Made by a program: the position numbers and the translations under genes | The notes under the pieces: generated by a model | The model's input: only the letters and a program-made list of their open reading frames with translations | Told to the model about the DNA's origin: nothing | The model's database searches: none | NCBI GenBank assembly: GCA_043803405.1 | Contig: JAZDKB010000018.1 | Coordinates: 128,001 to 192,000, forward strand | Direction: 5' to 3' | From: Spirochaetota bacterium | GTDB taxonomy: Bacteria > Spirochaetota > UBA4802 > JAFGDQ01 | Length of the DNA: 64,000 nucleotides | Shown: positions 44,716-64,000 of the stretch, piece after piece | How positions within the stretch are numbered: position 1 is the first letter of the stretch | Layout of the letters: each line of letters opens with the position of its first letter

Positions 44716-46587
44716 ATGAAAAAATTACTATTTCTGATAATCGCATTTGTTTTTATATTCGGATGCGCTGATTCAAAAATGGCAAAAGTATCGTCCGATG
44801 ATAAAAGCTTAAGAGATGAAGTGGCTGCAGACACATCTTCGGCCAAACAGGACATGGAAAGGGCAAAGGCTTCTTCCGAAGAAAAAGACGCATCCGGCTA
44901 CAAGGAAGCAAAGAAGGCATCTGAGCCGGCATCGCCCTCGAAAAAGAAGAAGAACGGGGACAGCAAGGCGGACATGGCAGCTCCGGCCGGAGCGCCTTCT
45001 CCTCGTGAATCGTCTGCCGGAGCAGGCGTTGGCGGCGGAAGGAGCACAGTGCCGTCATCATCAGGACTAAAGGCAGGCTTTGCGGACGACAATAAGCAAT
45101 TCAATTACTTTGTAAAATTTCTTGAACAGTACAAAGGCTCTGCGAAGCATTATCCTGCAAATATTGAGGAACGCATTATACTTAAAGTATTTGATTTCAA
45201 AAACAAAAGCATAGCCAATGCAAAGATCGATATTTTTGCTGACAAAAAACAATTATGTTCCGGAAGAACATACGCGGACGGCAGCTTTTTGTTTTTTCCT
45301 TCAGAGTACGGGAATAAGCCTGCGGCTTACAGGGCTGTAATTACATCGCAGCAGAAATCAAAAGAAATAAAAATAGACAGGCAGGGCAAACGTGAAATTG
45401 ACGTAAATTTTGACGGGCTTCGTCCTGAGATGAAAAATATTCCTATAGATATTTTATTCATTCTGGACACAACTGGCAGCATGGGCGAAGAGATAAGCAG
45501 GCTTAAAGACACAATAGAAATAATCAATATGAACATCGCGTCCATTTCAAGCAAGCCGAAGGTTCGTTTCGGCATGGTTCTGTACAGGGATAAAGACGAA
45601 GAATACCTGACAAAAATTATTCCGCTTACTGACGATCTTGACAGGTTCAGGGAGGAGCTTAACAAAGTTGAGGCCAACGGCGGTGGAGACGGGCCGGAAG
45701 ATCTCCAGTCCGCATTATCGGATGCGTTAACTAAAATAAAATGGAATAATAACGGCATACGCCTTAGCTTTATTATTACGGACGCTCCCCCTCACATTGA
45801 CTACGGGCAAAAATACACTTATATAAACGCAGCCCGTGACGCGAGACAAAAAGGAATAAAGATATTCTCCGTAGGCACAGGCGGCCTTGATATAAACGGC
45901 GAATACGTTTTAAGGCAATTGTCGCAATACACGTATTCAAAGTATATCTTCCTTACTTACGGCGAAAGAGGCGAGGCTGAAGGCGGGAAGGAAGGCAGCG
46001 TGAGCCATCACACAGGCGCGAATTTTCAGACCGACAAGCTCGAGAGCATAATCATCCGCTTTGCAAAGGAAGAGCTTTCTTTTCAGTCGGATAAGCCTCT
46101 GGAACAGGGAGAGGAATTTATTCAGGCTGTTAAAATAAAAGACGAGCAGAACGAAGCGACACTTAAAAAGCTTAATGACATGTGCATTGCACAGCTTATT
46201 GATTATTCGTCAATAGGCATTCCTTTGGGTACAACTGTAAGCGTAATTCCCTTTGCTTCGGACAACAAAGCGCTTAAATCAAATGCCGAGTATTTTACAG
46301 AACAGATGGCCTTTTCGCTTGCCAGGAACAAGACATTTAAAATAGTTGAACGCAAGGATATGCAGAAAATCCTTAAAGAGCTTGAACTTCAGTTTACAGG
46401 CCTTGTTAAGGATGAAAGCGCTGTTAAGGCAGGCAAACTCATCGGCGCAAAAATGATAATTACAGGAAATATTTACGAAAAGCCAGCCAATTATGAGATA
46501 TTTTTAAAGCTGCTGCGCGTTGAAACAGGGGAAGTGGTTTCCGTTAACAAGCTAAGAATAGACAGAATGCTTGGACTTTCAAAATAG
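44716..46587 (+). CDS. VWA-domain lipoprotein with C-terminal CsgG/FlgO-like domain
   Basis: Lipobox IFGC, disordered linker, MIDAS DILFILDTTGSM, GGGDGPE, TDAPPH; C-terminal FKIVER..KAGKLIGAKMIITG. Confidence 0.85.
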   Translation: MKKLLFLIIAFVFIFGCADSKMAKVSSDDKSLRDEVAADTSSAKQDMERAKASSEEKDASGYKEAKKASEPASPSKKKKNGDSKADMAAPAGAPSPRESSAGAGVGGGRSTVPSSSGLKAGFADDNKQFNYFVKFLEQYKGSAKHYPANIEERIILKVFDFKNKSIANAKIDIFADKKQLCSGRTYADGSFLFFPSEYGNKPAAYRAVITSQQKSKEIKIDRQGKREIDVNFDGLRPEMKNIPIDILFILDTTGSMGEEISRLKDTIEIINMNIASISSKPKVRFGMVLYRDKDEEYLTKIIPLTDDLDRFREELNKVEANGGGDGPEDLQSALSDALTKIKWNNNGIRLSFIITDAPPHIDYGQKYTYINAARDARQKGIKIFSVGTGGLDINGEYVLRQLSQYTYSKYIFLTYGERGEAEGGKEGSVSHHTGANFQTDKLESIIIRFAKEELSFQSDKPLEQGEEFIQAVKIKDEQNEATLKKLNDMCIAQLIDYSSIGIPLGTTVSVIPFASDNKALKSNAEYFTEQMAFSLARNKTFKIVERKDMQKILKELELQFTGLVKDESAVKAGKLIGAKMIITGNIYEKPANYEIFLKLLRVETGEVVSVNKLRIDRMLGLSK

Positions 46588-46781: not shown

Positions 46782-48452
46782 TTGAAAAAGAACGATAACA
46801 ATATTCATCCGCTCGGCACACGCGCGCGTATTCTTTTATCCAGCGTTTTCGGGCCATATGCCCGGGACGACGAATACGGCAGCCGCGCAATCAATCCTAT
46901 GGAGCTTTACCACAACCAGGTAACGCGCGTGCAGGGCCCGTTCTCCCTGCGTATGTTTCACCGCTCGTTCGGGCTTATGCTTATACAGGAGAACGTAGAC
47001 GCACCGTGCACACTTCTCGACTTCCCAACGCTGGAGCGCTTTGCAGAAGAAATAAAAACAAAGGCTTATGATATTATAGGAATAAGCTCCATTATTCCGA
47101 ATGTAGGCAAAGTAAAAAAGATGTGCGAGATTATACGCAAACATGCTGCGGACGTCAAGATCGTAGTAGGCGGCCATATAGCAAACCTTCCCGACCTGCA
47201 CAAAATAATCGATGCTGACTTTATAGTAAAAGGCGAAGGCATAAGCTGGTTCAGAAAATATCTGGGACAGGATACTAAAGCGCCTGTTAAGCACCCTGCT
47301 GTCATCTCGGGATTCGGCAACCGCATTTTCGGCATACGCCTTCCGGGCAAGGACACTGCTGCTACGCTCATCCCTTCAGTAGGCTGCCCTATGGGCTGTA
47401 ACTTCTGTTCAACATCGCATCTCTTTGGAGGCAAAGGCAAATCCGTGAACTTTTATGAAACAGGTGATGAGCTTTTTAACGTGATACTCCAGATCGAAAG
47501 CAAGTTGAATGTGCAGAGATTTTTTATAATGGATGAGAACTTTCTGCTGTATAAGCAGCGTGCTTTAAGGCTTCTGGAGCTTATAGAGAAGCACAAAAAA
47601 AGCTGGTCGTTCTATATATTCAGCTCCGCAAAGGTCATTAGCTCGTATTCCGATGAACAGCTTCTGGGTCTAGGAGTATCGTGGATTTGGATGGGGCTTG
47701 AAGGTAAAGGAAGCCAGTACACCAAGCTAAAGGAGATCGATACCCGTTCGCTTGTTAAACATCTCCAGTCCATCGGGATCGGAGTGCTCGGATCAAGCAT
47801 AATCGGGCTCGAAAATCACACTCCGGAAAACATTGAAAGCGTTATCGATTACGCGGTGAGCCACGGCACGGATTTTCATCAGTTTATGCTTTACACTCCG
47901 ATTCCGGGAACCGCTTTGTACGAAGAGCATAAAAAAAAGAAAACACTTCTTCCGGAAAAAGAATGCCCTCTTCCGGATACTCACGGCCAGTACCGTTTTA
48001 ATTTTAAGCATAAATATATTAAAAATAAACAGGAGATACAATATCTTCTGCAGGCATTTCAAAAGGACTTTGAAACAAACGGCCCCAGCATTGCGCGGTT
48101 AATCAGGACTTTGCTTAACGCGTGGAAGCAGCACAAGGACCATGCTGATATGCGCGTGCGCTCGCGCATTCTCTGGGAAACACGCAGGCTCAGGGATGTG
48201 TACCCGGGCGCCGTGTGGGCAATGAGGAAATATTATAAAAAAAATAAATATATGTATGATAAGCTTTCGGAAATACTCCGTGATATTTACAAAGAATTCG
48301 GGATCATTGTCAGGATAATCGCGCCTGCTGTGGGTATGTGGGTGTACTTTAAGATCGCGAAGGAAGCGCACAGGCTCTCGTGCGGATGGACTTACGAACC
48401 TGAGACGCATTACGAAAAGAACGAAAAAGCTCTGGCTATGGAAGGGCAGTGA
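46782..48452 (+). CDS. Cobalamin-binding radical SAM enzyme
   Basis: YDIIGIS, IVVGGH, GEG, GCPMGCNFC, MDENF, YTPIPGT; TTG start with AGGAGA RBS. Confidence 0.92.
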   Translation: MKKNDNNIHPLGTRARILLSSVFGPYARDDEYGSRAINPMELYHNQVTRVQGPFSLRMFHRSFGLMLIQENVDAPCTLLDFPTLERFAEEIKTKAYDIIGISSIIPNVGKVKKMCEIIRKHAADVKIVVGGHIANLPDLHKIIDADFIVKGEGISWFRKYLGQDTKAPVKHPAVISGFGNRIFGIRLPGKDTAATLIPSVGCPMGCNFCSTSHLFGGKGKSVNFYETGDELFNVILQIESKLNVQRFFIMDENFLLYKQRALRLLELIEKHKKSWSFYIFSSAKVISSYSDEQLLGLGVSWIWMGLEGKGSQYTKLKEIDTRSLVKHLQSIGIGVLGSSIIGLENHTPENIESVIDYAVSHGTDFHQFMLYTPIPGTALYEEHKKKKTLLPEKECPLPDTHGQYRFNFKHKYIKNKQEIQYLLQAFQKDFETNGPSIARLIRTLLNAWKQHKDHADMRVRSRILWETRRLRDVYPGAVWAMRKYYKKNKYMYDKLSEILRDIYKEFGIIVRIIAPAVGMWVYFKIAKEAHRLSCGWTYEPETHYEKNEKALAMEGQ

Positions 48453-50645: not shown

Positions 50646-50676
50646 GTGACATTAATATCCTTCATATTTGTTTAAT
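50646..50676 (+). promoter_or_regulatory. Putative ECF promoter, copy 1
   Basis: GTGACA-N17-TGTTTAAT. Confidence 0.6.
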
Positions 50677-50759
50677 CAATAAAGCAATTCAGCGCATGAG
50701 TGTTCTGTTGTTTTTCATTATTAGCTGTGTGCGCTGATAAAATTAAAAAGGAGGTCATA

Positions 50760-51461
50760 ATGAAAAGCATGTCAAAATTTTTTGCCGTAATTTTAGCAGT
50801 ATTCCTCTTTGGCAATTCCGGAATCTTTGCCCAGGAAGCGGCAAAGGCCGCAACTGAAGCGGAAAAAATAACTAACACCGGCGAAACGCAGGATAAACCG
50901 AAGCGCGAGGTGAGTGCGCTTTTTAAAGGCATTGGGAAGGATACTTACATTTCCGGTTACGGTGCGCTTACGGGGTCATACTCAAGGATCAAAGGAGAAG
51001 ATGCGTTCCTGCCCGGCTTCCGTGCTGGACTCATACTGGATAACCTGGTAATTGGCCTGAGCGGCACATGCCTTGCGCATCCGAATAAAAGGAGCGACTT
51101 CGGGGATAATTCATATACGGACGGGAAAGACTACGTGGACTTCAGCTATGGAGGCGCAATGGTCGAATATTACTTCTTCCCGCAAAAACTGGTGCATTTT
51201 TCAATAGGCACTGTGATCGGCGGAGGAAGCCTCAGGTTTTCGTCAGACAGGGATGACGACGATGACAATGACAACAGGGGCGGGGATAAATTTTTCGCAG
51301 TGGAGCCAGAAGCGAATGTTTTCATAAATCTTGCAAGGTTCTGCCGCGTCGGCATAGGCGGTTCGTACAGGTACATCAATGGCCTGGATAATGATACCTA
51401 TAAAGACAGGCATTTCAACGGCGCGAATGTTAAACTGGTAGCAGCTTTCGGATGGTTCTAG
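50760..51461 (+). CDS. Small outer-membrane beta-barrel protein; start ATG 50760
   Basis: RBS AAGGAGG, signal peptide, YGGAMVEY, VEPEANV, GGSYRY, terminal FGWF. Confidence 0.75.
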   Translation: MKSMSKFFAVILAVFLFGNSGIFAQEAAKAATEAEKITNTGETQDKPKREVSALFKGIGKDTYISGYGALTGSYSRIKGEDAFLPGFRAGLILDNLVIGLSGTCLAHPNKRSDFGDNSYTDGKDYVDFSYGGAMVEYYFFPQKLVHFSIGTVIGGGSLRFSSDRDDDDDNDNRGGDKFFAVEPEANVFINLARFCRVGIGGSYRYINGLDNDTYKDRHFNGANVKLVAAFGWF

Positions 51462-51535
51462 GGCAATAGCACATACAGGGGCAGGGGCTGTATCACGCTA
51501 AAAAAAGCAGATTTGTTTATGATAATTTTTGCTGT

Positions 51536-51576
51536 AAATCCCCCCTACCCCCCTTTAAATAAAAAAGGGGGGTAGC
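51536..51576. repeat. CCCCCCTTT...AAAGGGGGG hairpin
   Basis: CTACCCCCCTTT-AAATAAA-AAAGGGGGGTAG; same family as 33289. Confidence 0.7.
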
Positions 51577-51643
51577 CGTTTCGCCTCAAACGATTTAAAT
51601 TTATAAATAGCTTAAAAATAAATTATTCAAGAGAGAAAAAAAA

Positions 51644-52285
51644 ATGTCTGATACATTATACCTTGTAGGTTATGCCGAAACCTTTGTTTTTATTATGCTT
51701 CTTGCGGCAAGCATAATAGCACTGGCAGTAGGCATAGAGAGGACTGTAATATTCAAAAGGAATACAAATAAAAAAATAGATCTGTTCGTCAGCCGGTTAA
51801 TTGAGCTGTTCCGCAGCCGCAACATTAAAGCCGCTGCCGCGCTGGTAAAGGAAACAGGAGAAAACGTATATACACGTTTTGCGGACTTTTCAATGCATCA
51901 GGCGGAAAAATACGGAAGCGATCTGCCCGAACTTATGTCCGGTAAAATAATAGAGGAAAAGATGTTTCTCGAAAAGCGGCTTACAATATTGAACACTCTT
52001 GGAAACAACGCGCCTTTCATAGGCCTGCTCGGCACAGTGCTCGGCGTTATTAAAGCATTCTACGGGCTTGGCACGCTCGGCAGCACAGGCGCGGAAGTGG
52101 TAATGCGCAGCATCTCAAAGGCTTTGCTTGCTACGGCAGCAGGCCTGTTCATAGCCATACCCGTAGTCATGGCAAACAATTACTTTTCAAAAAAAGTGAA
52201 GATCATTACCCAGCATCTTGAAATTTTTTCCAGAGAAATAAACGCGAGCCTTCGCGCAAAAAAAAAGAATGCAAAGAGTGAATAA
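51644..52285 (+). CDS. exbB: ExbB/TolQ proton channel protein
   Basis: LNTLGNNAPFIGLLGTVLGVIKAF, ALLATAAGLFIAIP. Confidence 0.93.
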   Translation: MSDTLYLVGYAETFVFIMLLAASIIALAVGIERTVIFKRNTNKKIDLFVSRLIELFRSRNIKAAAALVKETGENVYTRFADFSMHQAEKYGSDLPELMSGKIIEEKMFLEKRLTILNTLGNNAPFIGLLGTVLGVIKAFYGLGTLGSTGAEVVMRSISKALLATAAGLFIAIPVVMANNYFSKKVKIITQHLEIFSREINASLRAKKKNAKSE

Positions 52286-52304
52286 ACAAAAGAGGTAAAT
52301 TGCA

Positions 52305-52706
52305 ATGTCAATATTTTCAAATTCGGAAAGCGACGAGATAGGGTACATCAACATTACTCCAATGGTAGATGTTCTGCTTGTGCTCCTTGTCATATTCATG
52401 GTAACAGCGAATTTTTTAAAGATGGAATCCGTAAACATAAACCTGCCAAAGGTTAACTCGGCTGATCCCAATATCGCGAAATCAGTTCAGATTGCGCTTA
52501 CGAACAACGGCAGGCTTTTAATGGAGGACAGCGAAATCACTGAAGAAAGAATGCTAGCAAGGCTTTCGCAGGAAGCCAGGTACAGGCCGAATGTGAGGGT
52601 AACGCTTTCCGCTGATGAGCGCCTTGCATACGGGAAAATAGCGCACGCGATGGGCATTATCCGCCAGTCGGGCGTTACGCGAATTGCTTTGTCCGTAAAG
52701 CGCTGA
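52305..52706 (+). CDS. exbD: ExbD/TolR protein
   Basis: INITPMVDVLLVLLVIFMVTA. Confidence 0.93.
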   Translation: MSIFSNSESDEIGYINITPMVDVLLVLLVIFMVTANFLKMESVNINLPKVNSADPNIAKSVQIALTNNGRLLMEDSEITEERMLARLSQEARYRPNVRVTLSADERLAYGKIAHAMGIIRQSGVTRIALSVKR

Positions 52707-52719
52707 TGCATATAAAATT

Positions 52720-53379
52720 ATGATAAAAATATATCATCAAATAATTCAAAAGTTCAGAATGATGGATCTTTTCAGGCGATGCGTCAGCATTTCATTCAGC
52801 CTTCATCTGTTATTTATCGGTACATATTATCTTTCCAGTATGCCTGCTTTCAGCTCGGATGCCGGTGAAGTCTTTGACAGCCGGAACATAAGCTTTAAGA
52901 ATACGGAAGTTGATTTTGTCGATCTTCCGCCTTCCGTTATTTTGGGCGGTGACACAAACCCGGCTCCGGTACAGAAGGAAGAATGGGTGGAGGGCACAGG
53001 CAGGGGCAGGCCCGATGCGGGCAATACAGACGTAAATATAAACAAGCTCTCAGGCACAGGCACTGACCCGGACGGGTACATGTTCGCGGATCTCGCGGAC
53101 CATCCTCCAGTGCCGATAATCGATTTTAATCCGGACGATTTTTTTCCGCAGGCAGCAAGATCTGCGAACATTCACAGGAGCACAGTGCTTGTTGAAGTCC
53201 AGGTAAACGAGAACGGCTCTGTTAAAAATTTCAGGCTATTGTCCGCAGCTTCAGTATACGGTTTTGACGAGGCAGCAGTCAAAGTGCTTTCAAGGATGCG
53301 CTTTCGGCCCGGAAAGGTAAACGGCAGGCCTGTAAAAATGCTTGCGCGCATGCCCCTGGTATTTGCCCTGGAAGACTGA
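52720..53379 (+). CDS. tonB: TonB energy transducer
   Basis: TM with SxxLH, C-terminal FPQAAR..VNENGSV..GFDEAA..FRPGKVNGRPV. Confidence 0.9.
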   Translation: MIKIYHQIIQKFRMMDLFRRCVSISFSLHLLFIGTYYLSSMPAFSSDAGEVFDSRNISFKNTEVDFVDLPPSVILGGDTNPAPVQKEEWVEGTGRGRPDAGNTDVNINKLSGTGTDPDGYMFADLADHPPVPIIDFNPDDFFPQAARSANIHRSTVLVEVQVNENGSVKNFRLLSAASVYGFDEAAVKVLSRMRFRPGKVNGRPVKMLARMPLVFALED

Positions 53380-53385
53380 TGCATA

Positions 53386-53473
53386 CTAGAACTCATCTCA
53401 AAATTAGATTTTATTGTGTTTTAATCAATCCTGAATAGTTCCTATAAATTAATAATCTTGAGATAAGTTGTAG
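53386..53473. mobile_element. MITE-like element (88 bp)
   Basis: CTAGAACTCATCTCAAAATTA / TAATCTTGAGATAAGTTGTAG imperfect 21-bp TIRs. Confidence 0.6.
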
Positions 53474-53502
53474 AAATCTCATTAAGAGTCCATCCCGGAA
53501 TA

Positions 53503-53533
53503 GTAACACTTTCGCTGCCCTCCCGTGTTGAAT
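53503..53533 (+). promoter_or_regulatory. Putative ECF promoter, copy 2
   Basis: GTAACA-N17-TGTTGAAT. Confidence 0.6.
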
Positions 53534-53583
53534 AATAAAAAGATAAATTTAATATTTTATTCATTCAATAAAGGGCCAGCGAT

Positions 53584-55983
53584 ATGTCATTATATCAAAA
53601 CAAATCTTTTTATTTATTTGTCATAATTATTTTTTTTATTATGAAAGTCTCTGTCATTCATGCGCAGGCAGCAAAAGATGAATCTCCTGCTGCGGCAGAA
53701 CAGCCCGTGAAAGAAGCAGGCATTGCTGAAAACAGTGAAGCGCAAAAGCCGGGCGACCCCTCCTCACAGAACGCGGCTGAAAATGAAAAGGCAAAAACAG
53801 ACAGCAAAGAGACTGTGCTAAAGCCGCTCGTGATTCGCGGTTCAAAGGCGCGCGACAAGAAGAAGCCGGACATACAGAGCATCTCGCGCCAGACAATGAC
53901 TACCGAGGACATGAAAGAGGTTCCTGCTTCATTCGGGGATTCGGTTAGCGCTCTAACTTCGCTTCCGGGAATAACGCGCGAGGGAGGGAGCATATTCGGC
54001 GACCTTGTGATCAGGGGCGCCGATCCCATGGGCAACAAATATTTTGTCGATGATATTCCGCTCTATGATCCTCTGCATTTCGGAGGGATTCATTCTGTAA
54101 TCAATACGAACTTAATAAAGGATATAGACGTATACTCGTCCGCGTTCCCGGCTGAATTCGGATCAGCTACATCTGCCGTTATCAATATTTCCACTATAGA
54201 CAGGGTAAATGATTATGGAGGATATTTCGACGTAAGCCTTCTTTCCGTTAACACGCTTTTAAAAGCTCCCATACTGAAGGACAATAGCAATAACCTTGTT
54301 TTTAACAGGCCTTTAACCGGAGCGGATAATGATATACAGAATGCAGGATTTGTAATTGCGTCCGGAAGGTACGGCTATCTTGGCCTCGCCATAAAAGCCT
54401 CGGATATGATGACAGGCAATGACACACCTGTATCCCCCGAATACTGGGATTACCAGTTTAAGATGAAATATAATTTCAACACTGTACATTCGGCTACAAT
54501 TTTTCTTTTCGGGTTCAAGGATTTTATACGCATACTGATGAACGATGATCTCATGGAATCAGGGGATGATCCGTATATGATGAATGCGAAAATGAGATAC
54601 GAGAGGATATCGCATAATCAGGGACTGTATTTTGATTCGAAATTCAGCAATGACTTAAGCAACAGGATCCTTTTATACAGCTCTTTTACTGATATTAATG
54701 AATACTATGATTTTCCTGCAACAGGCGCTGCCTCATGGGCAAAGGATCTGGGACTGCATACAAAGCCCTGGATATTCGGACTAAAGGATAAGTATAAAGC
54801 AAAATGGCTGGACAGACATGCGGAACTTAGCGGAAGCGCCGAATACACGTTTTATCATTTTACTGCAAAAGGCAATTCCATTATTAACAAAGGAATGTCT
54901 CCTGTACTTGATTTCGGCGATGAAGACGCATTTCAAAGATACAACCTTGATGAAAAAATCATCAACCATGTTTACGGCGGTTACATTGAGAATAAATTTA
55001 TTTTTTCCGGCCTTACTGTCACTCCGGGCATACGGTCAGATCATCTTGTAAGAACAGGCGAGACAACATTTGACCCGAGACTTATGGCGAGCTGCAAATT
55101 TCCAACCAATACAACTATTGGTGCAGCAGGCGGGCATTACAGTTATTTCCCGCAGGTAAACCCGTACATCTTTGGTGAAAACACGGATGTCGCAGGCATG
55201 GGTAAAAAATTAAAATCCGAAAAAGCGTGGCATTCAAGTGTCAGCATTGAACAGGAAATCGGGCTTTTTTCATTTAAAGTTGAAGGATTCAGGAATTATT
55301 ATTATGATGAGCCAATGGCGTATCCTCATTATGAAGCAGACGGCACATATTTCCAGGGATTATGCTCAGGTAAAGAAAAAACCCGCGGATTTGAACTAAT
55401 GCTTCGCAAGGACTCTGAAGAGAGCAATAACGGGCTGTTCGGATGGATGAGCTATACATATACTCGCGCAAAATTTAAAAGCGGCCTGCCTACTACTGCT
55501 AATTTTCACGGAGTCGATCAGGGCTATATTGGAGACGAATACGGCGACAAATGGATCACATCGGAGTACGAGCAGGAGCATAATTTCAAGCTTGTCGCAG
55601 GTTACAGGCTTAACCGGCATATTTTAAGCGGACGTTTTCAGTACTGTTCGGGATATCCGTATACGCCTATTACAGGGCATGACTATGATGAAGATTATAA
55701 TACTGCTACTGGGAAAGACCGGTATATACCTGTATCCGGCGACAGGAATGCAAAAAATTTTCCATCTTATTATTCGCTTGATCTCAGATACACGCATAAG
55801 ACAAATTATTCATGGGGCAATGTAAGCTGGTACGTAGAAGTGATCAATTGTTTAATGAAAAAGCAGGTAAACACACAAAAGTGGTACTGGGACAGACCGT
55901 ATAGTGAAGGCAACAATCCGAAAAACAAATCGGAAGATACTCTTAATTTTATGCCGAATTTAGGAGTTGAAATTAAATTTTAA
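53584..55983 (+). CDS. TonB-dependent receptor
   Basis: Signal peptide, plug SLPGI..LVIRGAD..NKYFVDDIP, DIDVYSSAFPAEFG, barrel strands, terminal Phe. Confidence 0.92.
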   Translation: MSLYQNKSFYLFVIIIFFIMKVSVIHAQAAKDESPAAAEQPVKEAGIAENSEAQKPGDPSSQNAAENEKAKTDSKETVLKPLVIRGSKARDKKKPDIQSISRQTMTTEDMKEVPASFGDSVSALTSLPGITREGGSIFGDLVIRGADPMGNKYFVDDIPLYDPLHFGGIHSVINTNLIKDIDVYSSAFPAEFGSATSAVINISTIDRVNDYGGYFDVSLLSVNTLLKAPILKDNSNNLVFNRPLTGADNDIQNAGFVIASGRYGYLGLAIKASDMMTGNDTPVSPEYWDYQFKMKYNFNTVHSATIFLFGFKDFIRILMNDDLMESGDDPYMMNAKMRYERISHNQGLYFDSKFSNDLSNRILLYSSFTDINEYYDFPATGAASWAKDLGLHTKPWIFGLKDKYKAKWLDRHAELSGSAEYTFYHFTAKGNSIINKGMSPVLDFGDEDAFQRYNLDEKIINHVYGGYIENKFIFSGLTVTPGIRSDHLVRTGETTFDPRLMASCKFPTNTTIGAAGGHYSYFPQVNPYIFGENTDVAGMGKKLKSEKAWHSSVSIEQEIGLFSFKVEGFRNYYYDEPMAYPHYEADGTYFQGLCSGKEKTRGFELMLRKDSEESNNGLFGWMSYTYTRAKFKSGLPTTANFHGVDQGYIGDEYGDKWITSEYEQEHNFKLVAGYRLNRHILSGRFQYCSGYPYTPITGHDYDEDYNTATGKDRYIPVSGDRNAKNFPSYYSLDLRYTHKTNYSWGNVSWYVEVINCLMKKQVNTQKWYWDRPYSEGNNPKNKSEDTLNFMPNLGVEIKF

Positions 55984-56061
55984 TAGTGAATGATTCAAAT
56001 CCATTAGATAATTCCAGAATGAGCTAAAATCTGATTTATTGTTTAATTTTAAATTTAGCAG

Positions 56062-56228
56062 TACTCCGTATAGAGAATTGAAATACATAACAAAATTTTC
56101 TGCGGAATCGCACCCTTTTTTTCTGCTTTTCAGTTAATTAAAGGCTTTTAGTTCAGGGTGCGAAAAGCGTCCTCAAAAATTTTGTTATGTATTTCAATTC
56201 CTGGCATTTATGACGGCGTATAGGAGTA
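56062..56228. mobile_element. Long nested palindrome / MITE-like element
   Basis: Perfect 25-bp IR 56075-56099 / 56176-56200, inner 9-bp IR TCGCACCCT / AGGGTGCGA, outer TACTCC / GGAGTA ends. Confidence 0.7.
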
Positions 56229-56262
56229 TCTAAGTTTATAAGCGGAATTATTTTTTAGCAGG

Positions 56263-56293
56263 GTAACAAATAATACGGTTTCAGATGTTTAAT
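56263..56293 (+). promoter_or_regulatory. Putative ECF autoregulatory promoter, copy 3
   Basis: GTAACA-N17-TGTTTAAT, 26 bp before the sigma start. Confidence 0.65.
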
Positions 56294-56319
56294 TAACAGA
56301 GATTAAAAAGGAATTCAGG

Positions 56320-56808
56320 ATGCAGATCGATGTTGCTGAATATTACAGGAAATACGGGCCAATGGTGCTCAGAAGGTGCAGATTGCTTCTTAAGGATGAA
56401 GACAGGGCAATGGACGCCGTGCAGGATGTATTTGTGAAGCTTCTGCAGAACCAGGACAGGCTGAGCGGCACATATCCTTCGAGCCTGCTTTTCAGAATGG
56501 CAACCAACGTGTGTCTGAATATTATACGTTACGATAAAAGCAGGCCGCAGGCAGACTGCGGCGACATTCTGGCTTACATTGCTGCCAATGATGACATGGA
56601 GAGCAGGATCGCGGTAAGGGATTATATCGAAAGAATATTCGCAAAAGAAAAAGCAACCACAGGCGAACTTGCTGTAATGCACTATGTGGATAAAATGACG
56701 CTTAATGAAGTAGCAGAAATTTCCGGGATGTCTGTTTCCGGGGTCAGGAAGCGTCTGAGAAAATTAACTGAAACAGCGAAATCTCTGGATATGGAGGAAG
56801 AGATATGA
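56320..56808 (+). CDS. ECF RNA polymerase sigma factor
   Basis: Region 2 AMDAVQDVFVKL..LFRMATNVCLN; region 4 MTLNEVAEISGMSVSGVRKRL. Confidence 0.94.
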   Translation: MQIDVAEYYRKYGPMVLRRCRLLLKDEDRAMDAVQDVFVKLLQNQDRLSGTYPSSLLFRMATNVCLNIIRYDKSRPQADCGDILAYIAANDDMESRIAVRDYIERIFAKEKATTGELAVMHYVDKMTLNEVAEISGMSVSGVRKRLRKLTETAKSLDMEEEI

Positions 56809-57614
56809 ACAATAACCGAATACCCGATATTATGCTTGAAAGATATGTTCTGAAAGAGCTTGACCCGAAAAAGACAAACGAGATCCGCGTGCTTAGTGAA
56901 ACTGATCCGGATATAGCCTCAAGGATAATGGAGATCAGGAAGTCAAACGAAGAAATACTGAGAACGTATCCTGATGACAAGATCACGGCAGAGATAACGC
57001 ATAAATATAATACACAGAATATATCCTGGAAAAAACAGCGCCGCATTCCGGTAAAATATCTGCGCATTATCCCGCCTGTTGCTGTCGCAGCTGCAGCTCT
57101 TGTTGTTTTTATACTGCTTCCGGCTGTTAAAAAAGATGTGGCAATTATAGATACGAATGACATTACAAGGATCAAGGGAAAGGAAACTGCGCTTTACTTG
57201 TACAAAAAAAACAGAAACGGCGAAATTGATCTTATGAAAAACAATTCGGGCGCAAAAACAGGCGATCTGATTCAAATAGGTTACTCAACAATGGAAAATT
57301 CTTATGGCGTGATTTTATCGATAGACGGCAGGGGGAAGGTGACCCTTCATTATCCTGCTAATGAGAAGCAATCATCAAAGCTGCCTGCAGGAAAAAAACA
57401 CTTGCTCGAAAATTCATACGAGCTCGACGACGCGCCGGATTTTGAACGTTTCTTTTTTATAACATCATCTAACGAGATAAATATAGCATCTGTTGTATTT
57501 TCCGCAGAGATGCTTGCAGTTGAAAGGAAAAAGGCAATGACTGAAAATTTAACCTTTCAGTCTCTCAAAAATGAATCGATTAACCAGGTCTCTGTACTTG
57601 TTAAAAAGGATTAG
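56805..57614 (+). CDS. Putative single-pass anti-sigma factor (ActD-like, DUF4384-like periplasmic domain)
   Basis: ATGA overlap with sigma; N-terminal LERYVLKEL helix, TM, TRIKG, GDLIQIGY, SIDGRGKVTLHYP, SYELDDAP. Confidence 0.7.
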   Translation: MNNNRIPDIMLERYVLKELDPKKTNEIRVLSETDPDIASRIMEIRKSNEEILRTYPDDKITAEITHKYNTQNISWKKQRRIPVKYLRIIPPVAVAAAALVVFILLPAVKKDVAIIDTNDITRIKGKETALYLYKKNRNGEIDLMKNNSGAKTGDLIQIGYSTMENSYGVILSIDGRGKVTLHYPANEKQSSKLPAGKKHLLENSYELDDAPDFERFFFITSSNEINIASVVFSAEMLAVERKKAMTENLTFQSLKNESINQVSVLVKKD

Positions 57615-57619
57615 CTTAA

Positions 57620-59911
57620 ATGAAAAAAATATTTAATGTCATTTGTATAATATTTTTCTGTTTTTTTTATATTATAAATATTTCCGGCCTTGAAAAAAAT
57701 ACCATCCGCAGATTTGCTTTAATAGTGGGGGCAAATGACGGAGGCCCTGCCAGGCCAAAGCTTAAGTATTCGGTTTCGGACGCAAAATCAGTTCTGACAG
57801 TGCTTAACGAAATGGGCGGCATTACACGGAACGACAGCGTACTTCTGATTGAGCCTGACAGAAAAATTTTTTTTTCAGGAATGGATTCTGTTATAAAAAA
57901 AATAAAGCAATCAGGAAAAACATCGGATAAAAAAGAACTAATATTTTATTATTCAGGACACTCAGACGAAGAATCCATACTCCTCGGCAAAGAAAAAATA
58001 TCCTACAAGGAGATAAAGGATTTCATAAACAGCACACCTTCCGATGTGCGCATTGCAATACTCGACTCATGTTCATCTGGAGCTTTCACGAGGCTTAAGG
58101 GAGGTAAAATGCGCTCTCCGTTTCTCGTGGATTCCGCATTTAACATGAAGGGATACGCGTTTATGACTTCAAGCTCGCCCGACGAAGCATCGCAGGAATC
58201 TGAAAGAATAAAGGGCTCGTTCTTTACGCACTATCTAGTCGCGGGTTTAAGAGGCGCTGCGGACATGACCCAGGACGGCCGCATCACTCTTAACGAAGCA
58301 TACCAGTTTGCCTATAACGAGACCCTTGCGGGCACGGAGAAGACAATGAGCGGGCCACAGCACCCGAACTACAATATACAGATGTCGGGAACCGGCGATG
58401 TCGTAATGACGGATATACGTAAAAGCTCTTCTTTAATGATTATAAGCACGGAGATATCCGGCAAGCTGTTCATCAGGGACAGTGGGAACAGCCTTGTTTG
58501 CGAATTAAGAAAATCCGCAGGGCGCGCCATGCAGCTTGGGCTGGAGGGAGGAGCATACAGTATCACATACATAAAAGAAGGCAGCCTGTACGAAGCGGAT
58601 ATAACACTTAATACAGGCAAAGAAGTAGTTCTTTCGAATAATGACTTTAAAAAATCAGCTAAAGACAAAACAGTAGCCCGCGGAGATGCAGATAACAGCG
58701 AAAACAAATACGAAACAGTGGAATGGCAATTTTCTCTTTATCCGATGTTTCAGAGGAACAGAAACGTAATTAATAATTTTACGTTTAATCTTTTTGGAAG
58801 CTACAGCGCCCGGTTAAACGGACTCAGCTTTGGACTGGGTCCCGGCATTGTAAAGGAAGATGTAAAGGGGATTCAGCTGAACATTTTTGGAAATTACGCT
58901 GGTGAGAGAGTTGAAGGCGCACAGCTTTCCGTTATTGGCAATTATTCCGGGGGAAATATTACAGGTCTTCAATTATCACATCTTTTTAATATTGCCAGAG
59001 GCAATACAACCGGAGCGCAAGTATCACAAATTTTTAATATTTCAAGAGGCGACTTGACCGGGGCTCAGGTTTCCACAATATTCAACTATAACAGTAAAGA
59101 CGTAAAAGGAACACAGACTTCCTGCATCTTTAATCATGCGCAGCAAAATATTACAGGTCTGCAGCTTAGCGCTGTATATAATTATTCCGGCGAAAACGTT
59201 AAAGGCACGCAGATATCAGCAGTATATAACCACGCAGGAAAAAAAATGACAGGCCTGCAGCTTACCGGTGTCTGCAATTATTCCGGCGATGATGTAAATG
59301 GAACACAGATTGCCGGTGTTGCAAATATTTCGGGTAACGCAAACGGAGTGCAGATTGCTACATTCAATCTTGCAAAGGATTTCAGCGGTGTTCAGCTGGG
59401 CGTCATAAATATCGCGAAAACGCAGAACGGATTGCCTATTGGCCTCATTAATTTTTCCGAAAACGGCGCCATAGAAATCGCAGCATGGGGAAGCACGTTT
59501 ATGGCAGGCAACGCTGGTTTATTGTTCCGTTCGCATTATATTTATACTATATTTTCAGCAAGCTGGAATAATCTTGATGAAAAGATTGATACATCCTTTG
59601 CATATGGATTTCATCTTGGTGTCCATATACCGGTAAGCTCTTTTTACACGGACATTGACGCAGGTTTTATCCATATAGATAATGACAAGATCTTCTCGGT
59701 TAAAGAAAACACTGATCAGCAGGCATTGCAGGGAAGAATATCGATCGGGTATTATATTACAAAACGCATCTCGGTTTTTGCAGGCGCGGGTCTTAGTTAT
59801 ATATATGACAGCGAATTCAATAATGATGACGGAGATACGAGATTTAAGGAAGGAAAATATTCACCGTTGTTCTTTGCCGGAATAAAAGCTGCGTTGTTCG
59901 GCAATGGATAG
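57620..59911 (+). CDS. Exported caspase-family (C14) protease with 16-aa beta-helix repeats and C-terminal barrel-like domain
   Basis: Signal peptide; RFALIVGAN, YYSGH (His 57959-61), ILDSC (Cys 58070-72), GSFFTHYL; GxQxxxxxN repeats. Confidence 0.9.
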   Translation: MKKIFNVICIIFFCFFYIINISGLEKNTIRRFALIVGANDGGPARPKLKYSVSDAKSVLTVLNEMGGITRNDSVLLIEPDRKIFFSGMDSVIKKIKQSGKTSDKKELIFYYSGHSDEESILLGKEKISYKEIKDFINSTPSDVRIAILDSCSSGAFTRLKGGKMRSPFLVDSAFNMKGYAFMTSSSPDEASQESERIKGSFFTHYLVAGLRGAADMTQDGRITLNEAYQFAYNETLAGTEKTMSGPQHPNYNIQMSGTGDVVMTDIRKSSSLMIISTEISGKLFIRDSGNSLVCELRKSAGRAMQLGLEGGAYSITYIKEGSLYEADITLNTGKEVVLSNNDFKKSAKDKTVARGDADNSENKYETVEWQFSLYPMFQRNRNVINNFTFNLFGSYSARLNGLSFGLGPGIVKEDVKGIQLNIFGNYAGERVEGAQLSVIGNYSGGNITGLQLSHLFNIARGNTTGAQVSQIFNISRGDLTGAQVSTIFNYNSKDVKGTQTSCIFNHAQQNITGLQLSAVYNYSGENVKGTQISAVYNHAGKKMTGLQLTGVCNYSGDDVNGTQIAGVANISGNANGVQIATFNLAKDFSGVQLGVINIAKTQNGLPIGLINFSENGAIEIAAWGSTFMAGNAGLLFRSHYIYTIFSASWNNLDEKIDTSFAYGFHLGVHIPVSSFYTDIDAGFIHIDNDKIFSVKENTDQQALQGRISIGYYITKRISVFAGAGLSYIYDSEFNNDDGDTRFKEGKYSPLFFAGIKAALFGNG
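58868..59455 (+). repeat. Intragenic tandem repeats, about 13 units of 14-16 aa (LA_2272/2273-like)
   Basis: GIQLNIFGNYAGERVE GAQLSVIGNYSGGNIT GLQLSHLFNIARGNTT ... GVQLGVINIAKTQN GLPIGLIN. Confidence 0.85.
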
Positions 59912-62642: not shown

Positions 62643-64000
62643 TTAAGCTTTTTTCATACCTTTTTCAAGCATCGATTCAATTTTATATTTCTCCAGAAAA
62701 TAGATTGTGCTGCCCATTTCGCTTTCGTTTTTATTCAGATTTTTAAATGCTACTTCTCTTACAATAACGCTAACATTCATGCCTTTCTTTTTATCCTGCA
62801 AAAGCTTTGCCGATATGCTCCCTAAATCTTTAAAAGACACAAACCCTGAGGAAGTTTTATCCTGATATATAATATTATAGAATGTTTCGTTATCGCGTCT
62901 TTCAATGAGAGCCGCAAGCGCGCGTTTATTTTCCGAAATTAAAATCAGCTTTCCTTTAACTATTGCCGTTTCATCAACAACAGACAATTCCCCGAACCTG
63001 TCGATCAGCAGCTTATTAATTTTAAATGTATTCTTTTTCTTCTCCGAAATCTGTGCTGTTTTGGTTAGGCGCTTAACAATATTCTGGCAAAAATCATACA
63101 GATAAGTCAGGAATTCCTCCTTCATTGCAATCGGTTTTATGAATGAAAACAAATTCCCGGTTTCATTAACTATATAAGTAAAAAACAGATTTCCTTTTTC
63201 TTCATACGCAGCCGTAAGAATATTGTTTTCAGAAATATTGCGTAGCGCACTTAATGAAGTAAATACCGGGTCTCCGGAGAAAAAACCGTATTCAATTTGC
63301 TTTTTCGGTTTTATAGTTATGGCAGTTAAAAGATTGATTATATTCGGATAAATACCGGTTTCTATTTCTTCACCGTTTCTTATTACCATCACCAGTTTTG
63401 TTCCGATATTTGCGATAAATCCGGCTGATGTTTTTTTCCTGTCTTCGATTATGGCAGCATAGGCTTCTTTAAATAAGCTGATTATTCTTTTAAACGGTTT
63501 TTTATATGGATCAGGCGTGTTAATTGCGCAATGATCTTCAAAACTTTTTTTTAATTTATTGCCGTCTTTTAAAACAGTAAAAAGTATATTAATGAGATCT
63601 TCTTCGGAATTATATTCTTTTAAATATGATTCGCCCCAGCTTGTATGATAAAGAAAATGCAGTGTCTGAATTTCTTCGGGATTTTCAATATTAAAATTAA
63701 CTATTAAGAAATTTAACAGATTAAAAACAGGACTCAGAAAATAATCATTTCTTAAAACGATCCTCTCTTCTTTAAAAAAATTGGAACTTTGATCGAGAAA
63801 GCTCAGTACCTGCTGCTGATTGATCCTTGTGTATCCAGACTGTATGTTCACCCTGGTAAAACCCGGATAAAATATCTGGTTAAGAGATGTCCAGATTAAA
63901 AGTTTCAGCAAATTGCTTTCAGTCTTCAGTGTGGTTGTTATAAAACTGTCGGTTTTTACGGTGTTTCTTTTATACAATCTCCACTCTATGTTGTTAACAG
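62643..64000 (-). CDS. C-terminal part of a large protein, probably class I adenylate cyclase (5' end outside window)
   Basis: Frame open to window edge; LLKLLIWTSLNQIF, FLYHTSWGE (cf. LYRNSWNE of CyaA), YIVNETG. Confidence 0.45.
   Translation of the reverse strand, partial: VNNIEWRLYKRNTVKTDSFITTTLKTESNLLKLLIWTSLNQIFYPGFTRVNIQSGYTRINQQQVLSFLDQSSNFFKEERIVLRNDYFLSPVFNLLNFLIVNFNIENPEEIQTLHFLYHTSWGESYLKEYNSEEDLINILFTVLKDGNKLKKSFEDHCAINTPDPYKKPFKRIISLFKEAYAAIIEDRKKTSAGFIANIGTKLVMVIRNGEEIETGIYPNIINLLTAITIKPKKQIEYGFFSGDPVFTSLSALRNISENNILTAAYEEKGNLFFTYIVNETGNLFSFIKPIAMKEEFLTYLYDFCQNIVKRLTKTAQISEKKKNTFKINKLLIDRFGELSVVDETAIVKGKLILISENKRALAALIERRDNETFYNIIYQDKTSSGFVSFKDLGSISAKLLQDKKKGMNVSVIVREVAFKNLNKNESEMGSTIYFLEKYKIESMLEKGMKKA

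Follow-up and report, generated by a model that had tools for sequence, protein, structure and literature searches.

Layout of the locus

Eight genes in a 64,000-nt stretch of DNA from a Spirochaetota bacterium (contig JAZDKB010000018.1, positions 128,001 to 192,000) are the subject of this report. The whole stretch is called the window below and coordinates refer to it unless a contig is named; the region under study is 50646..59911, and genome-wide scans covered the whole genome of 3.98 Mb (label G000). The region ends in a trio of tightly packed genes for a sigma factor of the extracytoplasmic function (ECF) type, a predicted anti-sigma factor and an exported caspase-like protease. An earlier interpretation made from the sequence by itself (the sequence-only reading) had claimed an array of eight co-oriented genes, in which the caspase senses a signal through its repeats, cleaves the anti-sigma protein and so releases the sigma factor to express a TonB uptake module. 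All eight co-oriented open reading frames (ORFs) are indeed present (50760-59911, forward strand), and the Pfam search that had been named as a check matched ExbB, ExbD, TonB_C, Plug, Sigma70_r2/r4_2, DUF4384 and Peptidase_C14.

The sigma gene (56320..56808) encodes 162 residues with sigma2 and sigma4 regions (Sigma70_r2 2e-10, r4_2 4e-4). It overlaps the anti-sigma gene (56805..57614; 269 residues, ActD-like family, DUF4384 9e-5 and thus below the curated cut-off) by the ATGA at 56805-56808, and a 5-bp gap (57615-57619) leads to the caspase gene (57620..59911; 763 residues, Peptidase_C14, PF00656, 6e-11, above the cut-off); both the overlap and the gap had been claimed and can be read in the sequence. 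Upstream lie a gene for a small predicted outer-membrane beta-barrel of 233 residues (50760..51461), for which the Pfam search gave nothing, followed by exbB of the MotA/TolQ/ExbB family (51644..52285; ExbB 1e-29), exbD (52305..52706; ExbD 5e-27), tonB (52720..53379; TonB_C 3e-12) and a gene for a TonB-dependent receptor of 799 residues (53584..55983; Plug 5e-9).

Conservation of the trio

Homologous loci were collected with a pattern for the C-terminal part of the anti-sigma protein that does not include the K-G motif discussed below; 585 of 600 matches were confirmed and the best 80 loci were used, many of them with short flanks. The loci belong to Spirochaetota, Aminicenantes, Myxococcota and others. 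In 73 of the 80 the trio is complete, with the caspase gene directly 3' of the anti-sigma gene in 77 and the sigma gene 5' of it in 76; three of the incomplete trios lie at contig ends, and the other four are from Myxococcaceae. Similarly, among 40 relatives scanned, 17 carry an anti-sigma homologue, and the caspase gene comes next in 16 of the 17 (the remaining one is a contig end). This neighbourhood analysis supports the claim of a conserved module, and that the module is real we regard as nearly certain.

The inclusion of the TonB genes in the conserved system did not hold up in the same way. In the fetched flanks, where 145 long ORFs were scanned over their first 330 residues, a TonB receptor gene occurs within 10 kb in 12 of the 80 loci, exbB/D in 4 and both in only 1. 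In the stretches fetched from the 17 carriers, the receptor gene is adjacent in 3, a barrel gene directly precedes the sigma gene in 6, and exbB, exbD and tonB are absent from all 17; two genomes of the same genus do have the barrel-exbB-exbD-tonB block, either some 10 kb off or on a different contig. Considering these counts, the trio makes up the conserved core, and the TonB genes vary between loci and are a predicted output.

In the FecI/FecR/FecA and DegS/RseA/RseP systems, proteolysis of an anti-sigma factor frees an ECF sigma factor, and a TonB receptor can be the target. Could the trio belong to classical cell-surface signalling, with the receptor as the sensor and the caspase as an incidental neighbour? 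The receptor and ExbBD-TonB genes do adjoin the trio here, and, as in Fec-type systems, the receptor gene is among the predicted targets. However, Plug is the sole Pfam match of the receptor, with no STN signalling domain at E <= 0.05, and Pfam finds only DUF4384 and no FecR domain on the anti-sigma protein; together with the scarcity of nearby receptors among the 80 loci, this makes the classical frame very hard to uphold. The candidate site-1 enzyme here is instead a dedicated cysteine protease.

Members of the anti-sigma family are common: among 301 genomes sampled from the phylum, 45 carry one, and 1174 protein clusters belong to it among 7993 candidates scored. A quick caspase tree places the nearest relatives of the window protein in records titled Spirochaetes or Leptospirales. 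Record titles of Eubacteriales or Clostridia suggested monoderm hosts for eight rows (L039, L040, L046, L056, L061, L066, L078, L080), which nest among Aminicenantes on short branches and are probably mislabelled. An apparent anti-sigma-caspase fusion in L018 (G020:C108) reflects an assembly gap of Ns. A plasmid search for the anti-sigma protein gave no match, and a search of sequencing runs turned up a single DNA run, at a small share, and no run of RNA.

The trio is divided among several loci in Myxococcaceae. At one of them the order is promoter-sigma-anti-sigma-barrel, the barrel lacking a caspase domain; a second has promoter-anti-sigma-caspase, 3' of GGDEF, sigma-54 activator and GNAT genes; and at a third a caspase gene closes an exbB-exbD-tonB-receptor row. 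In two myxobacterial stretches (L140:3-7689 and L141:4220-10177), a close caspase paralogue follows genes for exbB, exbD, tonB, a receptor fused to TonB_C and a lipoprotein, with no sigma or anti-sigma gene within the stretch fetched. Up to 11 matches to the caspase family per genome occur in myxobacteria (L135-L137, L142-L152), many of them in distant sigma-anti-sigma-caspase trios without the promoter motif of the window.

The predicted anti-sigma protein

The middle gene of the trio had been called a putative anti-sigma gene, and its product does look like one, judging from a modelled RslA-like fold and from zinc-finger matches in paralogues. The model, with a mean predicted local distance difference test (pLDDT) of 85.7, has a helical N-domain (residues 4-67), a transmembrane helix at about 92-107, a disordered linker (residues 109-124 at pLDDT <50) and an Ig-like beta-sandwich corresponding to DUF4384 (residues 129-268). 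The window protein has one hydrophobic segment, and a single helix is found in 87 of 88 homologues. Residues 4-67 align with the whole RslA domain over 62 residues with a middling score (Z 6.8, root-mean-square deviation 3.5), and a Foldseek search with the full model gave no match at E <= 0.001. HxxxCxxC zinc motifs occur in distant myxobacterial paralogues, whose zf-HC2 matches are weak and fall below the cut-off.

The linker, predicted to be periplasmic, contains the motif R122-x-K124-G125 (57168..57179), a candidate site-1 cleavage motif. K124 is conserved in 88 of 88 homologues, G125 in 87 and R122 in 74; in contrast, linker columns 107-118 reach at most 21/88 identity. K124 is also present in 113 of 113 further homologues, a partly circular count in that the same profile was used to find them. 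The distance from the end of the transmembrane helix to K124 has a median of 20 residues (range 6-49). Moreover, 13 distant myxobacterial trio paralogues, found among 19 regions fetched, have a linker K-G in 13 of 13 when read by eye.

The caspase

The third gene had been described as encoding an exported caspase with a signal peptide, an intact dyad and beta-helix repeats, and the sequence does show a signal-like stretch, the dyad and repeats of the LA_2272 type. An N-terminal hydrophobic signal-like stretch precedes the caspase domain in 74 of 76 orthologues. The catalytic residues His114 (57959-57961) and Cys151 (58070-58072) span 57959..58072; Cys151, Asp54 and Asp149 are each conserved in 79 of 79 sequences, and His114 is invariant in the same alignment. 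A caspase profile compared with solved metacaspases gave a best E of 4.3e-6. The protein is thus a Peptidase_C14 member with an intact His-Cys dyad, and protease activity is predicted from its sequence. Asp54 and Asp149 align with positions of the metacaspase S1 pocket, whose acidic residues we take to confer Arg/Lys specificity. Metacaspases are described as cleaving after Arg or Lys, and a bacterial caspase has been reported, in the available part of a preprint, to cut conserved R|G sites (bioRxiv 2025.11.14.688446).

Two sites of this kind lie in the caspase itself. The first, R158-x-K160-G161 (58091..58102), is a candidate activation-loop site with the same motif as the anti-sigma linker, in which K160-G161 is conserved in 79 of 79 and R158 in 62 of 79 sequences; the caspases of the 13 distant myxobacterial trios also have K/R-G in this loop, read by eye. 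The second, R354-G355 (58679..58684; each residue 78/79), is a candidate release site at the junction of the protease module and the outer-membrane tail, where residues 349-362 have pLDDT <50.

The anti-sigma linker copies the caspase's own loop motif, and it could serve as a pseudo-substrate by which the caspase is inhibited or docked, in the way that PCi inhibits PCaspase, while a housekeeping site-1 protease releases the sigma factor. The accessible part of the PCaspase study fits this idea, with PCi both cleaved by PCaspase and inhibiting it (bioRxiv 2023.06.23.546230), and so do sigma-anti-sigma copies without an adjacent caspase that retain K/R-G (L095, L104, L134). However, the genomes of these three carry close caspases elsewhere, and the disordered linker places the K-G a short way beyond the membrane, the position at which site-1 cuts of regulated intramembrane proteolysis (RIP) occur. 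We therefore consider a pseudo-substrate role unlikely. A complex prediction for caspase residues 26-365 with anti-sigma residues 110-269 scored 0.01 and weighs neither way.

The modelled order of modules in the caspase is signal peptide, caspase domain, beta-sandwich, beta-helix and 8-stranded barrel. The beta-helix and barrel at the C-terminus, which had been noted before, are thus predicted by the model, with barrel matches that are weak (E 0.06-0.08). Sensing through the repeats cannot be the general rule, since the repeats are missing from 26 of 66 complete caspases: 40 have a beta-helix tail, in 12 the tail belongs to the family of the small barrel encoded by the first gene, and 14 have other tails. 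A stand-alone gene 29-71% identical to the caspase tail is found in 23 of 77 loci, and in Bacteroidota clusters predicted structures with the same tail have STN or FecR_C domains as fusion partners (27-43% of members). A receptor function of the tail is a lead that these models suggest.

Promoter motif and predicted regulon

In the regions upstream of 65 non-redundant sigma genes, motif discovery found GTGAC paired with TGTT in 22 cases and GTAAC paired with TGTT in 19, compared with a shuffled maximum of 5-8. A matrix, GTRACA-N16-GTGTT, was built from 40 of 63 regions, none of them from the genus of the window. When the genome was ranked with this matrix, the first place went to a site before the receptor gene (53503..53529, forward strand, GTAACA-N16-GTGTT, 21.6 bits), the second to one before the barrel gene (50646..50672, forward, GTGACA-N16-TTGTT, 20.7 bits) and the eighth to one before the sigma gene (56263..56289, forward, GTAACA-N16-ATGTT, 17.1 bits). 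The coordinate at which the sequence-only reading began the region, 50646, is the first base of the barrel copy. Three matches in the genome reach 20 bits or more, compared with none in three shuffles, and weaker matches are at chance level (18 real and 24-27 shuffled at >= 14 bits). The motif was not found before the other six of the seven receptor genes of the genome, nor before the other 18 of its 19 Sigma70_r2 matches.

The barrel promoter motif is retained before orthologues in four relatives (G001, G002, G005, G006) and the receptor promoter motif in three (G001, G002, G006), the G006 receptor orthologue lying on a contig separate from the trio. Across 90 loci there are 97 motif matches, compared with 3-5 in shuffles. 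By our own classification, 56 of these precede sigma genes (40 being the training sites), 39 precede target-type genes and 2 are unexplained; the 39 comprise sites before barrels, twins of the caspase tail, exported proteins of other kinds, receptors, exbB (two loci) and module genes. No chaperone or assembly genes were recognised among the targets in the 90 loci, which would favour a ligand-uptake response over general envelope stress. These motif data make it very probable that the sigma factor drives the barrel and receptor genes, and a predicted autoregulatory promoter precedes its own operon.

The proposal that the sigma factor expresses the TonB uptake module stands in part: the motif precedes the receptor and barrel genes, but exbB has none of its own. 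Induction of exbB-exbD-tonB would therefore need read-through from the barrel promoter past a GC hairpin of 12 bp between the barrel gene and exbB (51545..51575, forward strand), a possible terminator or processing site, and we give co-induction of these genes even odds. The whole 196-nt stretch around the hairpin has a z-score of only -1.3, and a terminator scan, itself at chance level, did not call the hairpin a terminator. With three motif copies, this hairpin and a 126-bp repeat between the receptor and sigma genes, the eight genes are predicted to form more than one transcript.

Weak matches before genes for barrel-like exported proteins at C48:62977 (reverse strand, 18.1 bits) and C10:97710 (forward, 14.4 bits) are in the chance range and were not counted as targets; the N-terminus of the C10 protein resembles 415-residue products of motif-bearing genes in relatives. 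A sigma-70 promoter scan was at chance level. In L047 (10811-16419), separate motif copies accompany the caspase gene and an exbB-exbD-exbD-tonB row, and tonB is followed by a second anti-sigma homologue.

If the caspase gene is under the control of the sigma factor, the enzyme could be a product of the response, an output or maturation protease, with K/R-G cut constitutively during export and signalling being non-covalent, or with other envelope proteins as its substrates. Its position in the sigma factor's own operon would suit this, as would its separate motif copy in L047 and the rows in L140 and L141 that end in a caspase. On the other hand, the strict adjacency to the anti-sigma gene (77 of 80 loci) and the 13 distant paralogous trios with the same site speak against a mere output, and we consider this explanation quite unlikely.

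A proposed trans-envelope switch

How might these parts be connected? The best overall explanation appears to be a trans-envelope proteolytic switch, to which we assign a probability of about 0.55; caspase cleavage at K124 has a slightly better than even chance of being the activating step. The trio, the dyad, the three invariant K/R-G sites and the promoter motif come from sequence and alignment, and the anti-sigma fold, the linker disorder and the outer-membrane tail from models; the receptor role of the tail and all cleavage steps we infer.

The exported caspase is predicted to hang into the periplasm from its outer-membrane barrel. The tail would be the receptor: as a sentinel, it would copy the outer-membrane protein that the system induces, and a ligand bound there would activate the protease by way of self-cleavage at K160. 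Cleavage at R354 would then free the protease from its outer-membrane anchor, a step that matters because K124 lies so close to the inner membrane. The freed protease would cut the anti-sigma protein at K124|G125, RseP would then cut the anti-sigma helix, and the ECF sigma factor would be freed to induce small barrels and TonB receptors, with exbB-exbD-tonB reached here only via read-through. An RseP-type gene with M50 and PDZ domains is present in the genome (G000:C4:40064).

Several points weigh against the switch. The caspase gene is downstream of the sigma promoter and so could be output alone, and the one Myxococcaceae sigma-anti-sigma copy without an adjacent caspase domain would need a caspase in trans. 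An inhibitory or docking role would fit the invariant K-G equally well. For the topology and the distances across the periplasm, the values are modelled or general background figures; the model of the caspase is a poor one (residues 145-268 at pLDDT <50, predicted template modelling score 0.38) and has no structural match at E <= 0.001 in Foldseek; and the RslA match falls below the tool's caution level for helical bundles, the window protein having no zinc ligands. As to the motif, 40 of the sigma-upstream sites are its training set and kin loci are not independent. Finally, general co-variation of the Arg before K-G in the two proteins was not found: outside one clade, it is present in both in 55 cases, in the anti-sigma protein only in 11, in the caspase only in 6 and in neither in 6. 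The clade set aside, six Aminicenantes members, has an altered sigma4 helix, an altered -35 element and loss of the Arg in both proteins, a joint change that speaks for the switch but amounts to a single event.

A broader proposal, about which we are doubtful, is a modular class of receptor-proteases, in which swappable outer-membrane barrels fused to a caspase sense surface ligands, the protease releases itself at R|G, moves across the periplasm and clips the anti-sigma protein at a motif copied from the activation loop, and a caspase-less receptor twin and TonB uptake genes are induced. The developmental act operon of Myxococcus xanthus would be included in this class.

Relation to known systems

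Among the systems closest in design is DdvS/DdvA of M. xanthus, which shares an ECF sigma factor, a single-pass anti-sigma factor and a periplasmic His-Cys domain of the caspase family; for DdvA, linker cleavage followed by RseP has been proposed (available part of PMC11506125). DdvA differs in that it has its own fused TPR-CHAT and controls a defence island, whereas the window has a separate C14 protease with an outer-membrane barrel, a DUF4384-ended anti-sigma protein of 269 residues without a CHAT domain (Pfam and model) and predicted envelope targets.

Could the trio be an anti-phage or cell-death module? In the type III-E Csx29/Csx30/RpoE system (Craspase), as far as the accessible text goes, the protein that binds the sigma factor is cut by a caspase-like protease, and DUF4384 forms the C-domain of some Csx30 proteins (bioRxiv 2022.08.17.504292). 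Likewise, the PCaspase/PCi/PCc-sigma system of Haliangium has a C14 caspase that proteolysis activates and whose gene lies with those for a sigma factor and for a small partner that is cleaved (bioRxiv 2023.06.23.546230, in part). Both thus join a caspase-family protease to a sigma factor. However, Csx29 is an RNA-triggered CHAT protease in a CRISPR locus, and no Cas genes were found at the window locus; PCaspase involves SAVED-CHAT activation, broad substrates, abortive infection and a kinase, with no outer-membrane anchor described in the part available. PADLOC matches are only weak (E >= 5.7e-4), no CRISPR or cyclic oligonucleotide-based anti-phage signalling system (CBASS) family was found in the first 330 residues of each of 145 long neighbour ORFs (>= 550 residues), the motif targets are envelope proteins and the protease is exported. 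A defence function is therefore highly improbable.

Sigma-metacaspase operons as such have been known since 2012: Asplund-Samuelsson described four M. xanthus metacaspase operons with sigma-70 factors and also listed such operons in Anaeromyxobacter, Haliangium, Sorangium, Ralstonia and Fibrobacter, with no anti-sigma factor, site, promoter or mechanism given in the part of that article available (PMC3501461). What is added here is promoter evidence that points to the TonB receptor and the barrel as predicted targets. The ECF classification of Casas-Pastor 2021, in the part available, does not mention caspase and names DUF4384 once, for ECF25. No published mechanism for a sigma/anti-sigma/caspase trio was found, in a search that most subscription papers and bioRxiv supplements lay outside.

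The second Myxococcaceae locus appears to be the five-gene act operon, the names ActD and ActE being assigned from gene order and domains in partly available sources. Its first genes encode, in order, a GGDEF protein, a sigma-54 activator and a GNAT protein; genes four and five encode an anti-sigma homologue (32%) and a caspase, with the same motif just before the anti-sigma gene. It differs from the window in that the sigma gene is at another locus, with a second anti-sigma gene and a caspase-less barrel.

By analogy, the trio would work like DdvS/DdvA, Csx29/Csx30/RpoE and other RIP systems, yet it fails their defining features because it has no fused CHAT, no Cas genes and no STN or FecR. 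The bacterial caspases that have been studied are mostly cytoplasmic enzymes of defence or cell death, and few of their substrates are known. The family described here supplies a candidate substrate bond (K124|G125), two candidate self-cleavage sites, a reporter-ready promoter and predicted targets, which makes a non-death signalling role of a bacterial caspase directly testable. If true, the switch would be a separate-protease counterpart to the DdvA mechanism, itself proposed but unproven, and it would suggest, for an organism in which genetics is practicable, a hypothesis of what the final two act operon genes do biochemically.

Other features of the window and genome

The trio is single-copy in the genome, the receptor gene has one close paralogue, and exbB-exbD-tonB has two close paralogous sets, the two further exbB copies being about 75% identical to that of the window. 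These sets (C20:71218-72999 and C43:79119-80864) are 59-80% identical to the window's and have no ECF motif, and exbB-exbD-tonB is triplicated in both same-genus genomes too.

The repeat between the receptor and sigma genes (56075..56200, no strand assigned) is an unrelated genome-wide inverted-repeat element of 126 bp that resembles a miniature inverted-repeat transposable element or a repetitive extragenic palindromic sequence. It has 25-nt perfect inverted arms, and the genome holds 18 full copies, each about 123 bp long; changes in the arms mostly remain complementary, and no obvious target duplication was seen. Elsewhere in the window, a predicted lipoprotein with VWA and CsgG/LpoB-like domains (44716-46587) is followed by a B12-binding radical SAM gene (46782-48452), and an ORF that leaves the window on the reverse strand (62643-63998) has a weak class-I adenylate cyclase match (E 5e-5).

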